Notes under the pieces: generated by a model
The model's input: the letters and a program-made list of their open reading frames with translations, nothing else
Database searches by the model: none
What the model was told of the DNA's origin: nothing
Position numbers and translations under genes: made by a program
Virus record (IMG/VR): IMGVR_UViG_2541047757_000012
Length of the DNA: 40,397 nucleotides
Reading direction: 5' to 3' (one strand)
From: a virus
Lineage: Duplodnaviria; Heunggongvirae; Uroviricota; Caudoviricetes
Part shown: piece after piece, positions 23,010 through 39,984 of the stretch
Layout of the letters: each line of letters begins with the position of its first letter
How positions within the stretch are numbered: position 1 is the first letter of the stretch

Positions 23010-23296
23010 AAATAGCCTTCCTCTCTCCAGATTTCTTGTGTGCGAAAAACACCTTCTGCATGCATCAGGCGTAATTCTTCTTTGGTGTAATCGCTGGTTT
23101 TTACCCGCCCGTCGATTAAATCGTGGCATGAGCTACAGGCAATCGCTGCCTGCATATCGTGTGGCTTTATCGCCGTTCCGCACGTTCCCGTCAGCCGGTA
23201 ATGCGCCAGTACAGACGTTTCGGGATTGTGATTGCAGTAGCCAGGAATTCTGACGGTGCACATCTGCCCCCGCGCCGCTTTACGTAAATCCACCAT
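23006..23296 (-). CDS. YbcO-like cysteine-rich small protein (DUF1364-like)
   Basis: 96 aa; MVDLRKAARGQMCTVRIPGYCNHNPETSVLAHYRLTG...ACSSCHD; resembles the lambdoid nin-region ybcO family as I recall it. Confidence 0.55.
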   Translation of the reverse strand: MVDLRKAARGQMCTVRIPGYCNHNPETSVLAHYRLTGTCGTAIKPHDMQAAIACSSCHDLIDGRVKTSDYTKEELRLMHAEGVFRTQEIWREEGYL

Positions 23297-23895
23297 TACG
23301 CAAACTCCAGTAACTGTGCGGCCACATTTTCGACTTCCTCCGGAGAGGAAAATTTACGGAACAGGATCCAGTTCCACAGCACATTCAGTACAGATTTATA
23401 AACCTGCTGAAACTCGGTTTCGTCCATGTTCGCAAATGCGATAGATTTTGCCCTGCGCCCACGACTACCATCAGGATAAATATGCTCGGTGTAAAATCCT
23501 GCCTGAATGGTTACCCACTCGCGGAAAGCGTCAAACGACTTTAGCAATGCCGTATCCCGGGTTCTGCATGTCGCAACGGTATTAAGGTATTGCTCTGCGG
23601 CATCACTCAGGGTTGGAGTGTGTTCCCGACCTACTGATTCGCACAGGTAATCAACGAAGCCCGATACCAGTTTTCGTTCGCGAGGCGTGATCGCCCCACC
23701 GACCGGAGTCCAGTAATCGAATCCCAGTTGCAGGAGTTTGAAAAAACGCTTGTGGAATGCGTAGTTACGCACACGCTTAAAGTCTGCGTGTATCCACTCA
23801 CCTATTTTGATTTGATGCAAAAAATCGCAACTCTCCGGCGTCGCCGGGAGAAGTAATCCGGAAGAGGTTTGTTTGACCAGTTGTATATGCGCCAT
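23296..23895 (-). CDS. YbcN-like protein (DUF1367-like)
   Basis: 199 aa, coupled to the ybcO-like gene; position upstream of ybcO/Q as in lambdoid nin regions. Confidence 0.5.
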   Translation of the reverse strand: MAHIQLVKQTSSGLLLPATPESCDFLHQIKIGEWIHADFKRVRNYAFHKRFFKLLQLGFDYWTPVGGAITPRERKLVSGFVDYLCESVGREHTPTLSDAAEQYLNTVATCRTRDTALLKSFDAFREWVTIQAGFYTEHIYPDGSRGRRAKSIAFANMDETEFQQVYKSVLNVLWNWILFRKFSSPEEVENVAAQLLEFA

Positions 23896-23966: not shown

Positions 23967-24218
23967 CTAACAGGATGCTCTGACTCGCAATTCATCCAGC
24001 AGTTTATCATTTCCCATAATGTCACTTACCCTCATCGGTAAAAAAATTGCCTTTCGACCATTACGATACATCATTGATTTTGGGATTTCAGGGAAGTAAT
24101 CCATTTCGACTATAACTGACAGGTCATCACGACGTATGACTGCGTATTTGCTACTAAATAGTTTCTTTATTTTTTCCACGATGCCTCCAGGTTTATAAGT
24201 ACAAAAGGTTATATCCAC
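23967..24218 (-). CDS. Hypothetical small protein (GTG start, AT-rich island)
   Basis: 83-aa ORF starting with GTG at 24218 and no clear SD; region 24180-24330 is very AT-rich. Confidence 0.3.
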   Translation of the reverse strand: MDITFCTYKPGGIVEKIKKLFSSKYAVIRRDDLSVIVEMDYFPEIPKSMMYRNGRKAIFLPMRVSDIMGNDKLLDELRVRASC

Positions 24219-24454: not shown

Positions 24455-24610
24455 TTACTCCTCAGGTTCGTAAGCTGTGAAGACAGCGACCTCCGTCTGG
24501 CCGGTTCGGATTCGTACCTCGCAGAGGTCTTTCCTCGTTACCAGTGCCGTCACTATGACGGTTAAACAGATGACGATCAGGGCGACTAACATCGCCTTTT
24601 GCTGCTTCAT
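24455..24610 (-). CDS. hok: Hok/Gef-family type I toxin
   Basis: 51 aa MKQQKAMLVALIVICLTVIVTALVTRKDLCEVRIRTGQTEVAVFTAYEPEE, near-identical to HokD/RelF as I recall it; SD AAGGAGAAG before the ATG at 24610. Confidence 0.8.
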   Translation of the reverse strand: MKQQKAMLVALIVICLTVIVTALVTRKDLCEVRIRTGQTEVAVFTAYEPEE

Positions 24611-24760
24611 AGCCTGCTTCTCCTTGCCTTTCGGCACGTAAGAGGCTAACCTAGATTTGCCGTTCATAGATTGAGCCTCAGATTAATGTTAAGCGTCTTG
24701 CCGGACGCGTAATGTTAACTGGGGCTTTTCTCTGTCTGCCTTACAGTGGCATGCCTGAGG
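24611..24760. promoter_or_regulatory. hok leader region, expected site of Sok-like antisense RNA and mok overlap
   Basis: Inverted repeat TCTGTCTGCC...GGCAGACAG at 24730-24770; in hok/sok loci the antisense RNA is encoded opposite the leader. Exact boundaries not determinable by eye. Confidence 0.35.
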
Positions 24761-24948
24761 CAGACAGCCTCAAGCACCCGCAGCAATCTTACCGACACCG
24801 ATAAGAAAACGCTATTTTTTATTGCCAGCACCTTCTATCCAGGCTAATTTATCTGCGTCAGAACGGCGCAATGCGCTCGCCTGAGATACGTTTACTTGCC
24901 ATGGTAACAACAGGTAACGGCAATTGTTGTTTCTGTTTTGTTTCCTTC

Positions 24949-26658: not shown

Positions 26659-27135
26659 TCACTCTCCTTTGATGCGAATGTTTACAGCCTGACAAGCCTC
26701 TTCGAGAACCCAGTCAACAGCGTCTTTCCATGCTCCGGTTTCGACTGGCGGATTTTCACGCTTAACCTGTTCATAGAAGCGCACCGCTTTAACCAGTCCT
26801 TCCGGCGCTGGCTGCCCTGTCTGCGCCCTGACCCACGCCACTCGTGCCGGATTCATATGGCACATGTTGTGCCCTCTTTCTTCATGGTAATGCTCTTTAC
26901 CCTCGTTAAACGGCAACGCCTCATTCAGCCCGGCACTTCTGAAATCAGCGTGTAATTGCTCCAGCGCTGCCTCACAGGGGGTACCAATTAATGTGAGATA
27001 ATCGAAAAGATTGGCGCATAAACCATAATTTTGAGAAAACACTCCGCCGGGTTTTGCCCCGTTCTTCAGCCACAAATCATAAGCAATATAAAACCCGTAA
27101 AGCTGTTGCCTGATATTTTCTTTGATTTCTTGCAT
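26659..27135 (-). CDS. Hypothetical phage protein
   Basis: 158-aa ORF; C-terminus ...NIRIKGE encoded by the junction motif. Confidence 0.55.
   Translation of the reverse strand: MQEIKENIRQQLYGFYIAYDLWLKNGAKPGGVFSQNYGLCANLFDYLTLIGTPCEAALEQLHADFRSAGLNEALPFNEGKEHYHEERGHNMCHMNPARVAWVRAQTGQPAPEGLVKAVRFYEQVKRENPPVETGAWKDAVDWVLEEACQAVNIRIKGE
26662..26680. repeat. Conserved gene-junction motif, copy 2
   Basis: Same 19-mer; precedes the ATG at 26656. Confidence 0.8.
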
Positions 27136-29607: not shown

Positions 29608-30396
29608 TTACCCCCTGAAGCCTGGCGGGATCGCACTATCCGGTAACGAAACGGTGTTAACCTGTCGGAGTAACGTCTCAGGTCGAACACCTTTCGGCGC
29701 GAACAAGCCCTGGTATTCATTGGCGATGCTGTGTCGAATCACCTGCTCAGGTGAAAAACCCTGCTGGCGGAATTTTTCCAGCTCCCGTATCGCCCCGTTA
29801 GCGCCCTGCTCCGTTCGAATCGGTTTTCGCAATGCCTGCCTGAACTGAACCCACTCATGCCAGAGTGTTTCCGGCAACCAGTCAGGCAGCTCGATAGCCT
29901 CCGGCTCGAATTTTTTAGACGCTCGTTTTTGGCGAGGGGGATTTAGGGGGAGATCAGTATTTATATCTTCCTCTTCCTCTTCCTCTGGTAACGCTTTTTG
30001 ATCCGTTTGTGTAACGCTGGCAGCGTTACCTTTTCGTTTCAGTTCGCGTATTTTTGTTACTCGCTCGTTTGTAACCGCCCGTTTTTTAGAGCTTTTCCCG
30101 TTATGACGTTCAAAGTTAGGTAGAGAAAGCCCACCGTCATTTTCGATCAGCCATCCAACCTGAATTAACGCATCAGCAAAACCAGCCATAAAAGTGATGC
30201 GATCTATTGCACTTTTTGTAACGCCGCGAGCGTTACAATCTGCATTACCGTCTATCATTTGTTGATCCGCCCATGCCCAGAAGCGAATAACCTTCCCTAA
30301 TGCGGCATCTGGATCAATATTCAGAATCTCAGCAAGCCTGAATATTTCCGGCTTATCCGGCGTAATAACCTCGAGCTTTATCCAGTTTGAAGCCAT
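29608..30396 (-). CDS. Replication initiation protein, YdaU-like
   Basis: 262-aa ORF upstream of the DnaC-like gene; acidic EEEEEED linker; position fits a Rac-type replication module. Confidence 0.55.
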   Translation of the reverse strand: MASNWIKLEVITPDKPEIFRLAEILNIDPDAALGKVIRFWAWADQQMIDGNADCNARGVTKSAIDRITFMAGFADALIQVGWLIENDGGLSLPNFERHNGKSSKKRAVTNERVTKIRELKRKGNAASVTQTDQKALPEEEEEEDINTDLPLNPPRQKRASKKFEPEAIELPDWLPETLWHEWVQFRQALRKPIRTEQGANGAIRELEKFRQQGFSPEQVIRHSIANEYQGLFAPKGVRPETLLRQVNTVSLPDSAIPPGFRG

Positions 30397-30473
30397 TTGT
30401 TTTCACCTTGTAACGCTCGCAGCGTTACATTTAACTGATACCGAACAAAACAATCCGGCACGATCAATTTCAA

Positions 30474-30896
30474 TCAATGCACTACGACAGAATCGCCGGG
30501 CGACCCACCACCGCTGAAATGTGCTTTCCGGTAAACGGCCTGGACTGCATCATCATGCGCATCAATTGCCGTACTCAACGCTTCCTGCGCCGCCAGTAAT
30601 GCACGGCGTTCCAGGGTATCGAAGATGCAGAGTCGGTGACGCAGCTCGCGCGGAAGAATTGCCAGAACCGCAGGGATCAGTTTCTGAATTTTTTCCCTTT
30701 GCGCTTTCGTTTCACCTTTCAACCAACGGTGATAGATATTCTGCTGATTGTTCCAGTCCTTGCCTGGTACAAGGGGCAATTCGCCGCCCCCCTGGCGCAG
30801 ATATTCTTCAGTAATTGCGTTAGCGACCCACGCCTGCCCTTTTTCGGCTGCCAGGGCTAACAACACTGATTCGATGTGCTCATGCCTGATTTTCAT
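30474..30896 (-). CDS. YdaT-like protein
   Basis: 140 aa, MKIRHEHI... to ...VVVH; size and position between the Cro-like and replication genes as in Rac. Confidence 0.45.
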   Translation of the reverse strand: MKIRHEHIESVLLALAAEKGQAWVANAITEEYLRQGGGELPLVPGKDWNNQQNIYHRWLKGETKAQREKIQKLIPAVLAILPRELRHRLCIFDTLERRALLAAQEALSTAIDAHDDAVQAVYRKAHFSGGGSPGDSVVVH

Positions 30897-31135
30897 GAAT
30901 CAACCGCTCCTATGCTGTTTTCGCTATGCTTACCGTCTGGGGGGAATACATCGTCAAGTCCACAATGAGCGCCAAGCCGATTAAGGGTAGAAACAATTTT
31001 TCTGCACTCCTCTAGTCCAGGGGTACGAAAATTTGCTTCGTAATTTGCCAGTCGGCTTTGTATCCACCCTAACTGAACAGCAAGTTGTCTTTGAGACAGC
31101 CCAAGCTGTTTTCGATATGTTGAAATTTTGTTCAT
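30893..31135 (-). CDS. Cro-like HTH regulator (XRE family)
   Basis: 80 aa with HTH LGLSQRQLAVQLGWIQSRLANYE; GGAGG SD; divergent from the repressor across an operator-rich region. Confidence 0.65.
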   Translation of the reverse strand: MNKISTYRKQLGLSQRQLAVQLGWIQSRLANYEANFRTPGLEECRKIVSTLNRLGAHCGLDDVFPPDGKHSENSIGAVDS

Positions 31136-31231
31136 TGAAAACCTCCGATGACAATTTTAAACACACCTTGTGTTATATGGTCAAGCTGTTTTGTGTTTTA
31201 TGTAAATCACGATTCGTGATACAAGGATGCA
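31136..31231. promoter_or_regulatory. Divergent promoter/operator region between cro-like and repressor genes
   Basis: Palindromes AACACAccTTGTGTT (31160-31174) and ATCACGAtTCGTGAT (31206-31220) plus a further TGTGTT half-site. Confidence 0.5.
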
Positions 31232-31651
31232 ATGGAAAAAGAAAACGAAAAAATTGCCGCTAGTAGGCTCAATGACAAAATTGCAATGCGTCTTAAAGAG
31301 CGCAGGCAGAAGCTTGGTTTATCTCAAGGAAAACTTGCTGAAATCTGCGGATGGACGCAATCGCGTATAGGTAACTATGAGGCGGGCAGCAGAAATGTTG
31401 GAGTGCATGACGCTGTCGTATTGGGAAAGGCACTTGGCATATCTCCTCCTGAGCTCCTATTTGGAGAACAGGAATCTTCTGAATTGTGGTTAAATGAATC
31501 CCAACGAAAACTTCTTGAGTTGTTTAACCAGCTACCTGGCTCAGAACAACAACGAATGATTGAGCTATTTGAAGTCCGGCTAAAAGAAATCGATGAGTAT
31601 GTAGAAAAATATTTGAGAGGCAGGCTTAAAGATAATCCCCCACCGGAGTAA
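31232..31651 (+). CDS. Prophage repressor (XRE-family HTH, no obvious S24 peptidase domain)
   Basis: 139 aa with HTH LGLSQGKLAEICGWTQSRIGNYE; divergent to the cro-like gene; terminator follows. Confidence 0.65.
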   Translation: MEKENEKIAASRLNDKIAMRLKERRQKLGLSQGKLAEICGWTQSRIGNYEAGSRNVGVHDAVVLGKALGISPPELLFGEQESSELWLNESQRKLLELFNQLPGSEQQRMIELFEVRLKEIDEYVEKYLRGRLKDNPPPE

Positions 31652-31681: not shown

Positions 31682-31706
31682 AGCCCGCTATCAGCGGGCT
31701 TTTTTG
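31682..31706 (+). terminator. Intrinsic terminator after the repressor gene
   Basis: Stem AGCCCGC/GCGGGCT with 5-nt loop followed by TTTTT. Confidence 0.55.
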
Positions 31707-31734: not shown

Positions 31735-31776
31735 AACACATTTCGTGTTGACATAAGAAAACGCATTGTGTTTAAT
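31735..31776 (+). promoter_or_regulatory. pL-like early-left promoter with overlapping operator half-sites
   Basis: Perfect -35 TTGACA (31748-31753), 17-nt spacer, -10 TTTAAT (31771-31776); palindrome AACACAtttcGTGTT overlaps the -35 and a TGTGTT half-site overlaps the -10. Confidence 0.5.
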
Positions 31777-32329: not shown

Positions 32330-32724
32330 CTGAATACCTTATTACTGGTTGTGTGAGAACTCCAGTATACCACCGAGCCTGAAGTGGTAAAAAGACAGGC
32401 GCACAACACGAAGGCGCATTTCCGGTATTCATAAAGAGTCGGTCTTGTCTGTTAAATTTAAATGGTGGGAGTGCGCCTCCGGTTGTAAATAACGACATTG
32501 CTATGTGTAGTCTTTGGCGGCATCAGTTCTACTCCGTGGCTGCCCTGCCGCCCCTTTTTAAAGTGAATTTTGTGATGCGGTGAATGCGGCTAAGCGCACG
32601 CGGCACAGTTAAAAGCATCAGTGTTATGGGTGGATTATCCGGCGTTAATTGTTAACTGGTTAACGTCACCTGGAGGCACCAGGCACCGCATCGACAAAAT
32701 TCATTTGTAAAAATGGAGATAATT

Positions 32725-37857: not shown

Positions 37858-38052
37858 ATGCGGTATGAAAAAGTCAAACCATGCCCTTTTTGTGGTTGTC
37901 CATCAGTAACGGTGAAAGCCATTTCAGGATATTACCGCGCGAAGTGTAACGGATGCGAATCCCGAACCGGCTATGGTGGAAGTGAAAAAGAAGCACTCGA
38001 ACGATGGAATAAACGAACCACTGGAAATAATAATGGAGGTGTTCATGTATAA
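37858..38052 (+). CDS. ralR: Restriction alleviation protein Lar / RalR toxin
   Basis: 64 aa MRYEKVKPCPFCGCPSVTVKAISGYYRAKCNGCESRTGYGGSEKEALERWNKRTTGNNNGGVHV, closely matching Rac Lar/RalR as I recall it; SD GAGAG before the ATG at 37858. Confidence 0.8.
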   Translation: MRYEKVKPCPFCGCPSVTVKAISGYYRAKCNGCESRTGYGGSEKEALERWNKRTTGNNNGGVHV

Positions 38053-38233
38053 AATTACCGCCACTATTGAAAAGGAAGGTGGCACTCCTACTAACTGGAC
38101 AAGGTACTCAAAAACAAAGTTAACCAAATCGGAATGCGAAAAAATGCTCTCGGGGAAAAAAGAAGCAGGCGTTTCCAGAGAGCAGAAAGTAAAGCTGATA
38201 AATTTTAATTGCGAGAAACTTCTGCCCTCGTGA
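38045..38233 (+). CDS. Hypothetical small protein
   Basis: ATG at 38045 preceded by GGAGG; overlaps the lar stop by 8 nt; 62 aa. Confidence 0.4.
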   Translation: MYKITATIEKEGGTPTNWTRYSKTKLTKSECEKMLSGKKEAGVSREQKVKLINFNCEKLLPS

Positions 38234-38333: not shown

Positions 38334-38621
38334 ATGGCAATGAATCTTGTGACACTCAAAACGTGGGGAAAACTCAGATATCCGGATAACCCACCATCAA
38401 TATCAACGCTGAGACGATGGGCAAGGAATGGAAACATTTATCCTGCACCTGAACTACACGGGAGGAGTTACAGGGTGGTTCCGGAGGCTTTCTATATCAA
38501 CCCAAATAAGGTTGATACCGATATAACACACCATCAGCCTAATGGGCGACAAGGGAGAGACAGTCCGTTACTGGAGAAGTTAAAACATGCAGCGGAAAAA
38601 ATACGATCCCAATTTGCCTAG
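38334..38621 (+). CDS. xis: Excisionase, lambda Xis-like
   Basis: N-terminal ...VTLKTWGKLRYPDNPPSISTLRRWARNGNIYPAPELHGRSYRVV... parallels lambda Xis; 3' end overlaps int. Second ATG at 38340 has better SD spacing. Confidence 0.7.
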   Translation: MAMNLVTLKTWGKLRYPDNPPSISTLRRWARNGNIYPAPELHGRSYRVVPEAFYINPNKVDTDITHHQPNGRQGRDSPLLEKLKHAAEKIRSQFA

Positions 38622-39663
38622 GAACTTAACATATCGAAGGAGGGACAAAGCATATTACTGGCGCAACCCTCTGACGAAAGAAGAATTTACACTAGGTAAA
38701 ATTTCAAGAAGAGATGCAATCGCGCAGGCAATTGAAGCAAATCATTATATATACAAAAACTACTCTCCTGCTGCCTTAATTGAAAAACTTAAAGGGTTCG
38801 ACTCATTTACTATGGCAGACTGGATTGAACGTTACAAAACGATTCTTATAAGGAGAAAAGTGTCCAGAAATACTTATAAAATTCGGGTAAATCAACTGGA
38901 GACAATAAAAGAAAAATTGGGAGAGATTTTACTGACAGAAATAACCACTCGCCATATTGCCGAGTTTCTTGATTTGTGGATTGAAGGAGGGAAAAACACA
39001 ATGGCAGGATCAATGCGTTCTGTGTTGTCTGATATGTTTCGTGAGGCCATTGTTGAAGGACGTATATCTCAAAATCCAGTAACGCCAACAAGAGCACCGA
39101 AAATAGTAGTTACAAGAGAACGACTGAAACTAAAGACATACAACTGCATCAGGGAGGCAGCAGATCAACTTCCGGCATGGTTCCCATTAGCTATGGATTT
39201 AGCCCTTGTAACAGGACAACGTCGCGAAGACATAACGAATATGCGGTTTAGTGATATTTATGATGATCGTCTCCACATCAGGCAAATTAAGACAGGAATG
39301 ATGATTGCTATCCCCCTGTCACTCAGCCTTCCTGTCGCTGGTCTACGGCTTGGTACAGTAGTTGAACAGTGCCGCCTGGTAAGCCGGGGAGATTATCTAA
39401 TCAGTGCCGGGATTAGAAAAAACAGCCCTGACGGCAGCATTCACCCGGATGGCCTGACAAAAAAATTTGTCGCAGCCAGAAAATTAACAGGTATCCAGTT
39501 CAGTGAAAACCCACCAACTTTTCACGAGATCAGAAGCCTGGCTGGACGATTGTACAAAGAAACATGTGGAGAAGAATTTGCTCAGCGTCTACTTGGCCAC
39601 ACATCGGAGAAGACAACAAAAATGTATCTTGATGAGAGAGAAAAAACGTACTTACTGCTCTGA
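38587..39663 (+). CDS. int: Integrase, lambda-family tyrosine recombinase
   Basis: 358 aa; C-terminal catalytic region ...[11 protein letters not shown]...[18 protein letters not shown] with conserved Tyr; overlaps xis; adjacent to the att region. Confidence 0.9.
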
Positions 39664-39760: not shown

Positions 39761-39794
39761 AGACGCTTGCAACTGATTGATTTTAAATACAATT

Positions 39795-39897
39795 AAAAAA
39801 AGACCGAATACGATTCCTGTATTCGGTCCAGGGAAATGGCTCTTGGGAGAGAGCCGTGCGCTAAAAGTTGGCATTAATGCAGGCTTAGTTGCCTTGC
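39795..39897 (-). ncRNA. sdsR: sRNA SdsR (RyeB)-like host gene
   Basis: Minus-strand sequence GCAAGGCAACTAAGCCTGCATTAATGCC...GACCGAATACAGGAATCGTATTCGGTC + T7 matches my recollection of SdsR; sigma-S-like -10 CTATTCT upstream (about 39905-39911); terminal hairpin 39802-39828. Confidence 0.55.
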
Positions 39898-39984
39898 CCT
39901 TTAAGAATAGATGACGACGCCAGGTTTTCCAGTTTGCGTGCAAAATGGTCAATAAAAAGCGTGGTGGTCATCAGCTGAAATGTT

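Follow-up and report, generated by a model that had tools for sequence, protein, structure and literature searches.

In lambda, 434 and P22, the repressor and cro genes are divergently oriented around three pseudo-palindromic operators of 15-17 bp, which lie about 23-24 bp apart over PR and PRM with the middle site at about -42 of PRM, and related operators are found at pL, past the repressor gene. The operators of RacR, in the Rac prophage of E. coli K-12, are likewise three copies of a 6-3-6 inverted repeat (TTAGGC-n3-GCCTAA; PMC9638921), and in CP-933P, the operators of which are GTTTAGTAA repeats, PaaR2 and YdaS footprint on overlapping sites and form a bistable switch (PMC8630535). Three sites of the family xxCACR-N3-YGTGxx, 23-24 bp apart, are found in mEp213 and the Stx1 phage VT1-Sakai (annotated as "putative operator" in the GenBank record of the latter), both of which encode a lambda-type cII and a cI protein that has an S24 autocleavage domain and a length of about 213 aa. 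The repressors GtgR, GfoR and GfhR of the Gifsy prophages and DicA of Qin are shorter proteins (about 135-140 aa) with the C-terminal motif LL-LFNQLP-xE, and they are controlled by antirepressors (GftA, GfoA, GfhA, FsoA and Rem). The Gifsy repressors remain uncleaved and lose their activity to small antirepressors, which have their genes between dinI and irsA, downstream of a LexA box (PMC3121763), and DicA is relieved by Rem (PMC10448788).

The stretch of DNA analysed here (hereafter the window; 40,397 nt) is a Rac-type lambdoid prophage from E. coli, which shares with K-12 Rac and CP-933P its backbone (a YdaT that is 95% identical to that of K-12, the replication genes and recE) as well as the switch logic. 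Two divergent HTH genes are separated by a short gap of 96 bp (31136-31231). On the minus strand, the gene for a Cro-like protein (30893-31135; 80 aa, HTH_3) opens a series of genes that runs from 31135 to 28855 and continues with YdaT, the cII analogue (30474-30896; PMC9986795, PMC11879457), and with O-like and DnaC-like replication genes. On the plus strand, the repressor gene (31232-31651) is followed by an intrinsic terminator (31682-31700) and a leftward operon, the last gene of which codes for a RecE-like exonuclease VIII. The repressor itself is a 139-aa protein in which an HTH_3 N-terminal domain precedes a two-helix C-terminal module (LLELFNQLPGSEQ...). Despite the common backbone, it shows no detectable similarity to K-12 RacR (BLASTP E = 2.0), and the Cro-like protein gives no BLASTP alignment with K-12 YdaS, so that the immunity cassette must be considered heteroimmune within a Rac backbone and the K-12 pair was dropped as a reference. 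The operators also differ in sequence from those of K-12 Rac and CP-933P, and no toxin-antitoxin genes follow the repressor gene here; what this locus has in common with the K-12 Rac immunity type comes down to the 6-3-6 geometry and the YdaT backbone. The 1.6-kb immunity region is present at ≥99% identity in 124 complete E. coli genomes. Among 5,426 such genomes, about 153 carry the cassette, O157:H7, O145 and O55:H7 strains being represented, and relatives of the cassette are found across Enterobacterales.

Other parts of the window bear further marks of the prophage. A RalA antitoxin sRNA (Rfam, 216.7 bits) at 38051-38229 on the minus strand lies opposite an 86-aa ORF (37973-38233, plus strand), the two corresponding to RalR/RalA, a type I toxin-antitoxin pair of Rac. 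The host sRNA pair SraC/RyeA and SdsR/RyeB is found at 39791-39935, just past a 358-aa ORF (38587-39663) that is possibly an integrase, and probably marks the prophage's right-hand end and the chromosomal insertion site.

Two different palindromes had been reported in the 96-bp gap by a first-pass annotation of this DNA, and both are present as perfect 6-3-6 repeats: AACACAcctTGTGTT at 31160-31174 and ATCACGattCGTGAT at 31206-31220, designated below OR1 and OR3. An extra TGTGTT half-site, also recorded there and located at 31192-31197, is the good half of a site of the same length, OR2 (AAGCTGtttTGTGTT, 31183-31197). The three sites thus begin at 31160, 31183 and 31206, in exact 23-bp steps. 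The half-site search that the annotation had recommended likewise bore out the recurrence of AACACA/TGTGTT at pL, where two related sites are found past the repressor gene: OL2 (AACACAtttCGTGTT, 31735-31749; one mismatch) and OL1 (AAAACGcatTGTGTT, 31758-31772; two mismatches), with starts again 23 bp apart. All belong to a common 15-bp family, NNCACR-N3-YGTGNN, with the consensus A-[A/T]-CAC-[A/G]-N3-[C/T]-GTG-[A/T]-T, OR2 and OL1 being half-sites only. The 8-position core of the family, NNCACRNNNYGTGNN, has four matches in the whole window, against about 2.5 expected. The sole match outside OR and OL, GGCACAtgtTGTGCC at 26859-26873, is situated within a coding region (26659-27135), has flanks that depart from the consensus and is most likely a chance match. 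A further perfect palindrome, AACGCT-N3-AGCGTT, occurs twice, within the O-like replication gene (30013-30027) and in the ydaT-O gap just 5' of the ribosome-binding site of the O gene (30412-30426); it fits neither these operators nor the YdaT box described below, and could be a site for the replication protein or for a regulator.

The sites are closely interlocked with putative promoters, which we assigned by eye and by conservation; a consensus promoter scan called none of PR, PRM and pL, as the tool needs an A at the second position of the -10 hexamer, which these lack. Two hits that the scan did return in the region are not conserved and were set aside. PR (minus strand) has the -35 hexamer TTGACC (31179-31184), read from the sequence, and a 17-nt spacer in front of an inferred -10-like hexamer, TTTAAA (31156-31161), beyond which come a GGAGG Shine-Dalgarno sequence and the cro ATG. 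OR1 occupies the spacer and extends into the -10 hexamer, and OR2 abuts and overlaps the -35. The pL-like promoter (31748-31776, plus strand) has the same geometry, with TTGACA at 31748-31753, 17 nt and TTTAAT at 31771-31776; OL2 is fused to its -35 (GTGTTGACA) and the half-degenerate OL1 lies between -35 and -10. Written in the sense of transcription, PR reads AACACAaaaCAGCTT GACC atat AACACAaggTGTGTT TAAAAT and pL reads AACACAtttCGTGTT GACA taag AAAACGcatTGTGTT TAATAA. The two promoters are paralogous: in each of them the -35 (TTGACC or TTGACA) is fused to one site, and the second fills the 17-nt spacer and runs into the -10 (TTTAAA or TTTAAT). The proposal of an operator shared with the pL-like promoter is supported, an AACACA/TGTGTT-type site being located at TTGACA-17-TTTAAT. 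This promoter would drive the leftward operon, including recE and a homologue of the sRNA DicF. The latter is matched at 32502-32553 on the plus strand, 3' of the promoter (Rfam, 60.9 bits; gathering score 48); as the match lies inside the leftward operon, the repressor would control a DicF homologue here, as DicA does in Qin.

For the repressor gene, we propose a promoter PRM (plus strand) composed of a weak -35 (TTATGT, 31198-31203; TTGAGT or TTGCGT in relatives) and an extended -10 (TGaTACAAG, 31217-31225). OR3 lies in its spacer and contributes, through its right arm, the TG of the extended -10, and the centre of OR2 (31190) is found at -42 relative to the repressor ATG. Only 6 nt separate the extended -10 from the A of this ATG at 31232. 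The arrangement TGnTAxAAx-6 nt-ATG, with no conserved Shine-Dalgarno sequence, recurs in nine of ten compared loci (the distance is 7 nt in pPE4), and it predicts a leaderless repressor mRNA, for which lambda cI, RacR and PaaR2 provide precedents (PMC8630535, PMC9638921). A Shine-Dalgarno-like AAGGA before the repressor ATG in the window is a mild argument against a strictly leaderless transcript. In mEp213 (L011, 1498) and VT1-Sakai (L012, 1501), the annotated cI starts do not coincide with the ATG that lies at a fixed distance from OR3 and aligns with the repressor starts of all the other members, so that they may have been placed a few codons away from the true start.

The repressor is one of many short (about 125-141 aa), HTH-only proteins that make up a large family in Enterobacterales. 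A scan of contigs with an alignment of two repressors yielded no confirmed relative, and loci were taken instead through proteins recovered by homology search. We compared nine relatives, which are not phylogenetically independent: seven short-repressor loci with 84% to 58% protein identity, from Salmonella, Serratia, Klebsiella (two), E. coli, Yersinia and phage vB_Apl-pPE4, and the two phages with S24-type cI, mEp213 and VT1-Sakai. Gene order is constant among the short-repressor loci, with a gap of 94-108 bp, the Yersinia locus being devoid of a YdaT gene. The same holds for the layout of OR, in which two palindromes, at OR1 and OR3, flank a half-conserved middle site; the exception is Yersinia, which has half-sites only at the OR1 and OR3 positions and keeps the right arm alone at OR3. 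Overall, the half-conserved OR2-position site is found in all relatives and a full-core palindrome at the OR3 position in eight of the nine. A full OL-type site is found 84-118 bp past the repressor stop codon in seven of the nine (it is absent from Yersinia and VT1-Sakai), and position 31763, within OL1, is an A in three relatives, nearer to the consensus. The promoters follow the same trend: among the ten aligned sequences the PR -35 retains GTCAA in seven and TCAA in the other three, and the pL layout is common to the window and to Salmonella, Serratia, Klebsiella and E. coli loci (with TTGACT in the last), TTGACA standing upstream of a full OL site in Kpn L010 and in pPE4.

In the comparison with the Salmonella locus, the coding DNA of which is about 30% diverged, all 17 intergenic substitutions fall outside the OR1 and OR3 arms and OR2 (P = 4.5e-5), OR2 shows no change at any of its 15 positions, and changes within OR1 and OR3 are confined to the 3-bp spacers. 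When E. coli alleles are considered as well, the OR1 arms are again invariant and the spacer alone varies. The operator type moreover covaries with the recognition helix of the protein encoded next to it, AACAC being associated with GW[TA]QSR and TTCAC or CTCAC with GWSG[SA]SR, and the OL flanks agree with the OR type of the same phage (AACAC versus TTCAC/CTCAC). Such concordance within genomes and covariation between protein and DNA are expected of operators for the encoded repressor. One of the relatives deserves a comment: pPE4 (L003, PP818812.1, 3425-4154) was deposited as "Actinobacillus phage vB_Apl-pPE4", yet is E. coli Rac-like. Its Cro is 100% identical to that of the window, and the two sequences diverge right after the cro start codon into other operators and a 60%-identical repressor. 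The cro/operator boundary is thus a recombination joint, and the same allele is found on E. coli chromosomes (L014).

Are there then two kinds of operator in the gap, as the first-pass annotation had assumed in setting the palindromes apart and in proposing the second as the site of the Cro-like protein? Both are predicted to be real operators, but they are not separate motifs: they agree in the CAC-N5-GTG core, in length and in the 23-bp register, and the CAC half-site positions are invariant in OR1 and OR3 across nine loci. At pL, OL2 is a hybrid of the arms of both (AACACA / CGTGTT). In addition, the HTH domains of the repressor and the Cro-like protein are 45% identical (E 2e-10) and have the recognition region GW-QSR--NYEA in common. 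Taken together, the common core, the hybrid pL site and the similar HTHs argue for one operator family used by both proteins, and the repressor and the Cro-like protein probably both read all the sites; in the closest studied systems, too, both proteins protect overlapping sites (PMC8630535). We therefore consider it unlikely that AACACA-N3-TGTGTT is dedicated to the repressor and ATCACG-N3-CGTGAT used only or mainly by the Cro-like protein, even if OR1 and OR3 differ systematically across relatives at the innermost base of the arms. Among 18 half-sites each, this base is A in 14 and G in 4 at OR1, and G in 15, A in 2 and T in 1 at OR3 (Fisher P = 1.3e-4, in lineages that are non-independent). 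A protein-specific division could likewise be read into pPE4, which combines the identical Cro and the 60%-identical repressor with operators that are all T-type at position 2, like OR3 of the window (the right arm CGTGAT is identical in both phages). The same Cro, however, is associated with an AACACA-type OR1 in the window and a TTCACA-type OR1 in pPE4, which argues that Cro reads the core and not one subtype. With a single operator family, discrimination between the two proteins is likely to lie in the innermost base of the arm (A in OR1, G in OR3), the distribution of which fits graded affinities of opposite order, with OR3 as the first target of Cro. The idea of a Cro site at the second palindrome thus survives in an altered form, there being probably no Cro-only motif but a systematic difference between OR1 and OR3 at one base and a position of OR3 on the promoter of the repressor. 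Experimental work on this operator type, binding included, was not found in the searchable literature.

Two further readings dispense with a repressor operator at one or both palindromes. The sequences might be chance occurrences or RNA hairpins without an operator role, to which we attach a negligible probability. The window admittedly has 15 perfect 6-3-6 palindromes, roughly one in every 3 kb, and Markov simulations predict 11.6 +/- 3.6, so that a single one is not significant, but two inside 96 bp (P about 4e-4) and three core matches within 640 bp (P about 1e-5) constitute clustering. Arms that are conserved next to variable spacers across genera, and a fixed register with conserved promoter hexamers, also speak against chance. 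As for hairpins, transcripts of PR or PRM would include neither palindrome if they begin at the inferred start sites, stems of 6 bp with 3-nt loops are weak, and an RNA hairpin or terminator was ruled out on geometry. It is also very improbable that OR3 serves another regulator, such as YdaT (the cII analogue) or a host factor. K-12 YdaT does protect the racR-ydaS intergenic region in vitro (PMC11879457); in the window, however, the YdaT box TTGATT-N6-AATCAA is intact elsewhere, OR3 has the core and register of the operators, and OR3-type sites are present in mEp213 and VT1-Sakai, which have a lambda-type cII and no YdaT. YdaT was accordingly discarded as the OR3 binder on motif grounds. Its box, TTGATTcatgaaAATCAg at 30886-30903 on the minus strand, lies over the ydaT start codon, is distinct from the operators, and matches the site footprinted in K-12 and CP-933P (ATGATT/TTGATT-N6-AATCAA; motif from PMC11879457).

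The absence of an obvious S24 domain from the repressor, for which the first-pass annotation had advised a domain search, is borne out by several approaches. Only HTH families are recovered in Pfam, the AlphaFold model of the 139-aa protein is all-alpha (pLDDT 87), and fold hits are confined to the HTH, so that no S24 (LexA-like) autocleavage domain was found. The model consists of a five-helix HTH, the fold of which is closest to P22 c2, the 434 repressor and Cro, and C.AhdI, followed by a linker, a helix at residues 89-99 and a long helix at 103-134. Searching with the fold of the C-terminal module gave HTH matches only, a match to SinR (105 columns, 7.9 A rmsd) being taken as an analogy and nothing more. 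At the sequence level, the C-terminal motif LLELFNQLPGSEQ... has counterparts that align in DicA (29% identity overall), GtgR of Gifsy-2 (E 1e-6) and gp47 of SPN3UB, the HTH of which is otherwise different. By its length, its C-terminal helical module and the lack of a cleavage motif, the protein falls among the short (about 130-150 aa) repressors of the Gifsy/DicA type; GtgR and DicA themselves have an unrelated N-terminal domain and unrelated operators.

The reverse relationship is seen with mEp213 and VT1-Sakai. These phages share the operator family, the spacing, the placement of the PR -35 and a related Cro, and the N-terminal domains of their cI proteins are 58% and 49% identical, respectively, to residues 12-80 of the repressor, but the S24 domain is replaced here by the short helical module. 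The same N-terminal and operator module joined to another C-terminal domain points to a domain swap. Judged by sequence, the window falls into the mEp213/VT1-Sakai specificity group, and its DNA-binding and operator module is already a known kind. From lambda, 434 and P22, the locus is likewise set apart by a repressor that lacks the S24 (LexA-like) domain, and also by operators of another sequence, two recognisable OL sites in place of three, and a cII function provided by YdaT.

A repressor of this constitution could be expected to be induced through an antirepressor or by another route, as had been suggested. The suggestion agrees with the homology of the C-terminal part to GtgR and DicA; it falls short in that no LexA box was found and that the only candidate is positional. 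This speculative candidate is a 70-aa ORF of the family phrog_1813 (23967-24179, minus strand), with a GTG start after GGAGG, situated directly upstream of the irsA/DUF1367 homologue (23296-23895). A Rac/Gifsy-like early region with recE, and a small ORF at this very place that opens with a non-canonical start codon, are features shared with the Gifsy phages. Homologues of the candidate are found in 10 of 50,697 phage records, and five of these ten coincide with the five records in which the full-length repressor homologues are the closest, a co-occurrence that shared backbone ancestry could explain. In Chris1, pAEv1818 and SPN3UB, the homologue has dinI on one side and the DUF1367 gene on the other, and canonical LexA boxes lie upstream of it; a LexA box is also found upstream of the homologue in Kp4865-4 (unannotated) and upstream of dinI in Gifsy-2.

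By contrast, dinI and the LexA box are absent from the window, and a hok/sok type I toxin-antitoxin cassette (24455-24779, minus strand; Pfam HOK_GEF; Rfam sok, 112 bits) with a terminator (24386-24369, minus strand) precedes the ORF, in the place that dinI and the LexA box occupy in related phages. The window contains no LexA box CTGT-N8-ACAG at 0 mismatches and no match to the 20-mer LexA consensus at up to 3 mismatches; at 1 mismatch the core gives fewer hits than expected by chance, none of them near the candidate. Homologues of Rem, GftA and DinI were not detected in the window by tblastn, and the candidate itself has no detectable homology to Rem or GftA (hhalign probabilities of 0.9% and 0.2%), the PHROG families being different. 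The region upstream of the candidate is 99% identical in pPE4, and this comparison was hence uninformative. Position, size and the non-canonical start codon nevertheless make it plausible, with a confidence lying between doubtful and evenly balanced, that the ORF encodes a Gifsy-type antirepressor, the SOS control of which has been replaced in this prophage.

Taken as a whole, 31136-31231 is very probably a tripartite OR of the lambdoid type, accompanied by a bipartite OL at pL. Sequence, geometry, conservation, covariation and domain content support this reading, and from them we infer binding, affinities, start sites, activation and the route of induction. Repressor dimers would bind OR1, between the -35 and -10 of PR, and be helped onto the half-degenerate OR2 abutting the -35, thereby blocking the operon of the cro-like gene, ydaT and the replication genes. 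From OR2, at -42 of PRM, which is where lambda CI binds to activate its own promoter, the repressor may also activate PRM. OR3 fills the PRM spacer and overlaps the extended -10, and its occupation, by Cro early on or by surplus repressor, would turn repressor synthesis off. OL2 and OL1, with the geometry of OR2 and OR1, would control the strong pL-like promoter past the repressor gene. The homology of their recognition regions leads us to expect that the repressor and the Cro-like protein compete for the same sites, presumably with opposite orders of preference. Since the repressor combines a C-terminal module of the GtgR/DicA type with the lack of an autocleavage domain, derepression would most likely proceed via a small antirepressor and/or spontaneous, Cro-driven bistable switching, and not via RecA-stimulated cleavage. 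The first-pass annotation was therefore right in outline, and the correction to be made is that the sites constitute one lambda-like tripartite OR, with a bipartite OL, and not two unrelated palindromes.

More tentatively, and with considerable doubt, the locus may be viewed as an assembly of two independently exchangeable modules, one comprising the DNA-binding domain, the operators and Cro, and the other the helical C-terminal tail, which would travel with phrog_1813 (SPN3UB gp59-like), SOS control having been lost to hok/sok both here and in pPE4. If this is true, induction would not require SOS, or else would need antirepressors that co-resident prophages provide in trans, and phrog_1813 would be a previously unannotated family of small proteins in the Gifsy antirepressor slot; it is in any case a testable candidate for a new antirepressor family. 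Only the C-terminal swap and this candidate add to the textbook picture, and the understanding of lambdoid switches is not overturned. Knowledge of the operators should make immunity groups predictable, and show in which prophages the leftward operon (DicF homologue, RecE) and the YdaT/replication operon are held silent. The occurrence of the same DNA-binding domain and operators with either an S24 or a Gifsy/DicA-type tail would, finally, provide a natural test of a switch in which the mode of induction has been exchanged and the DNA specificity left untouched.
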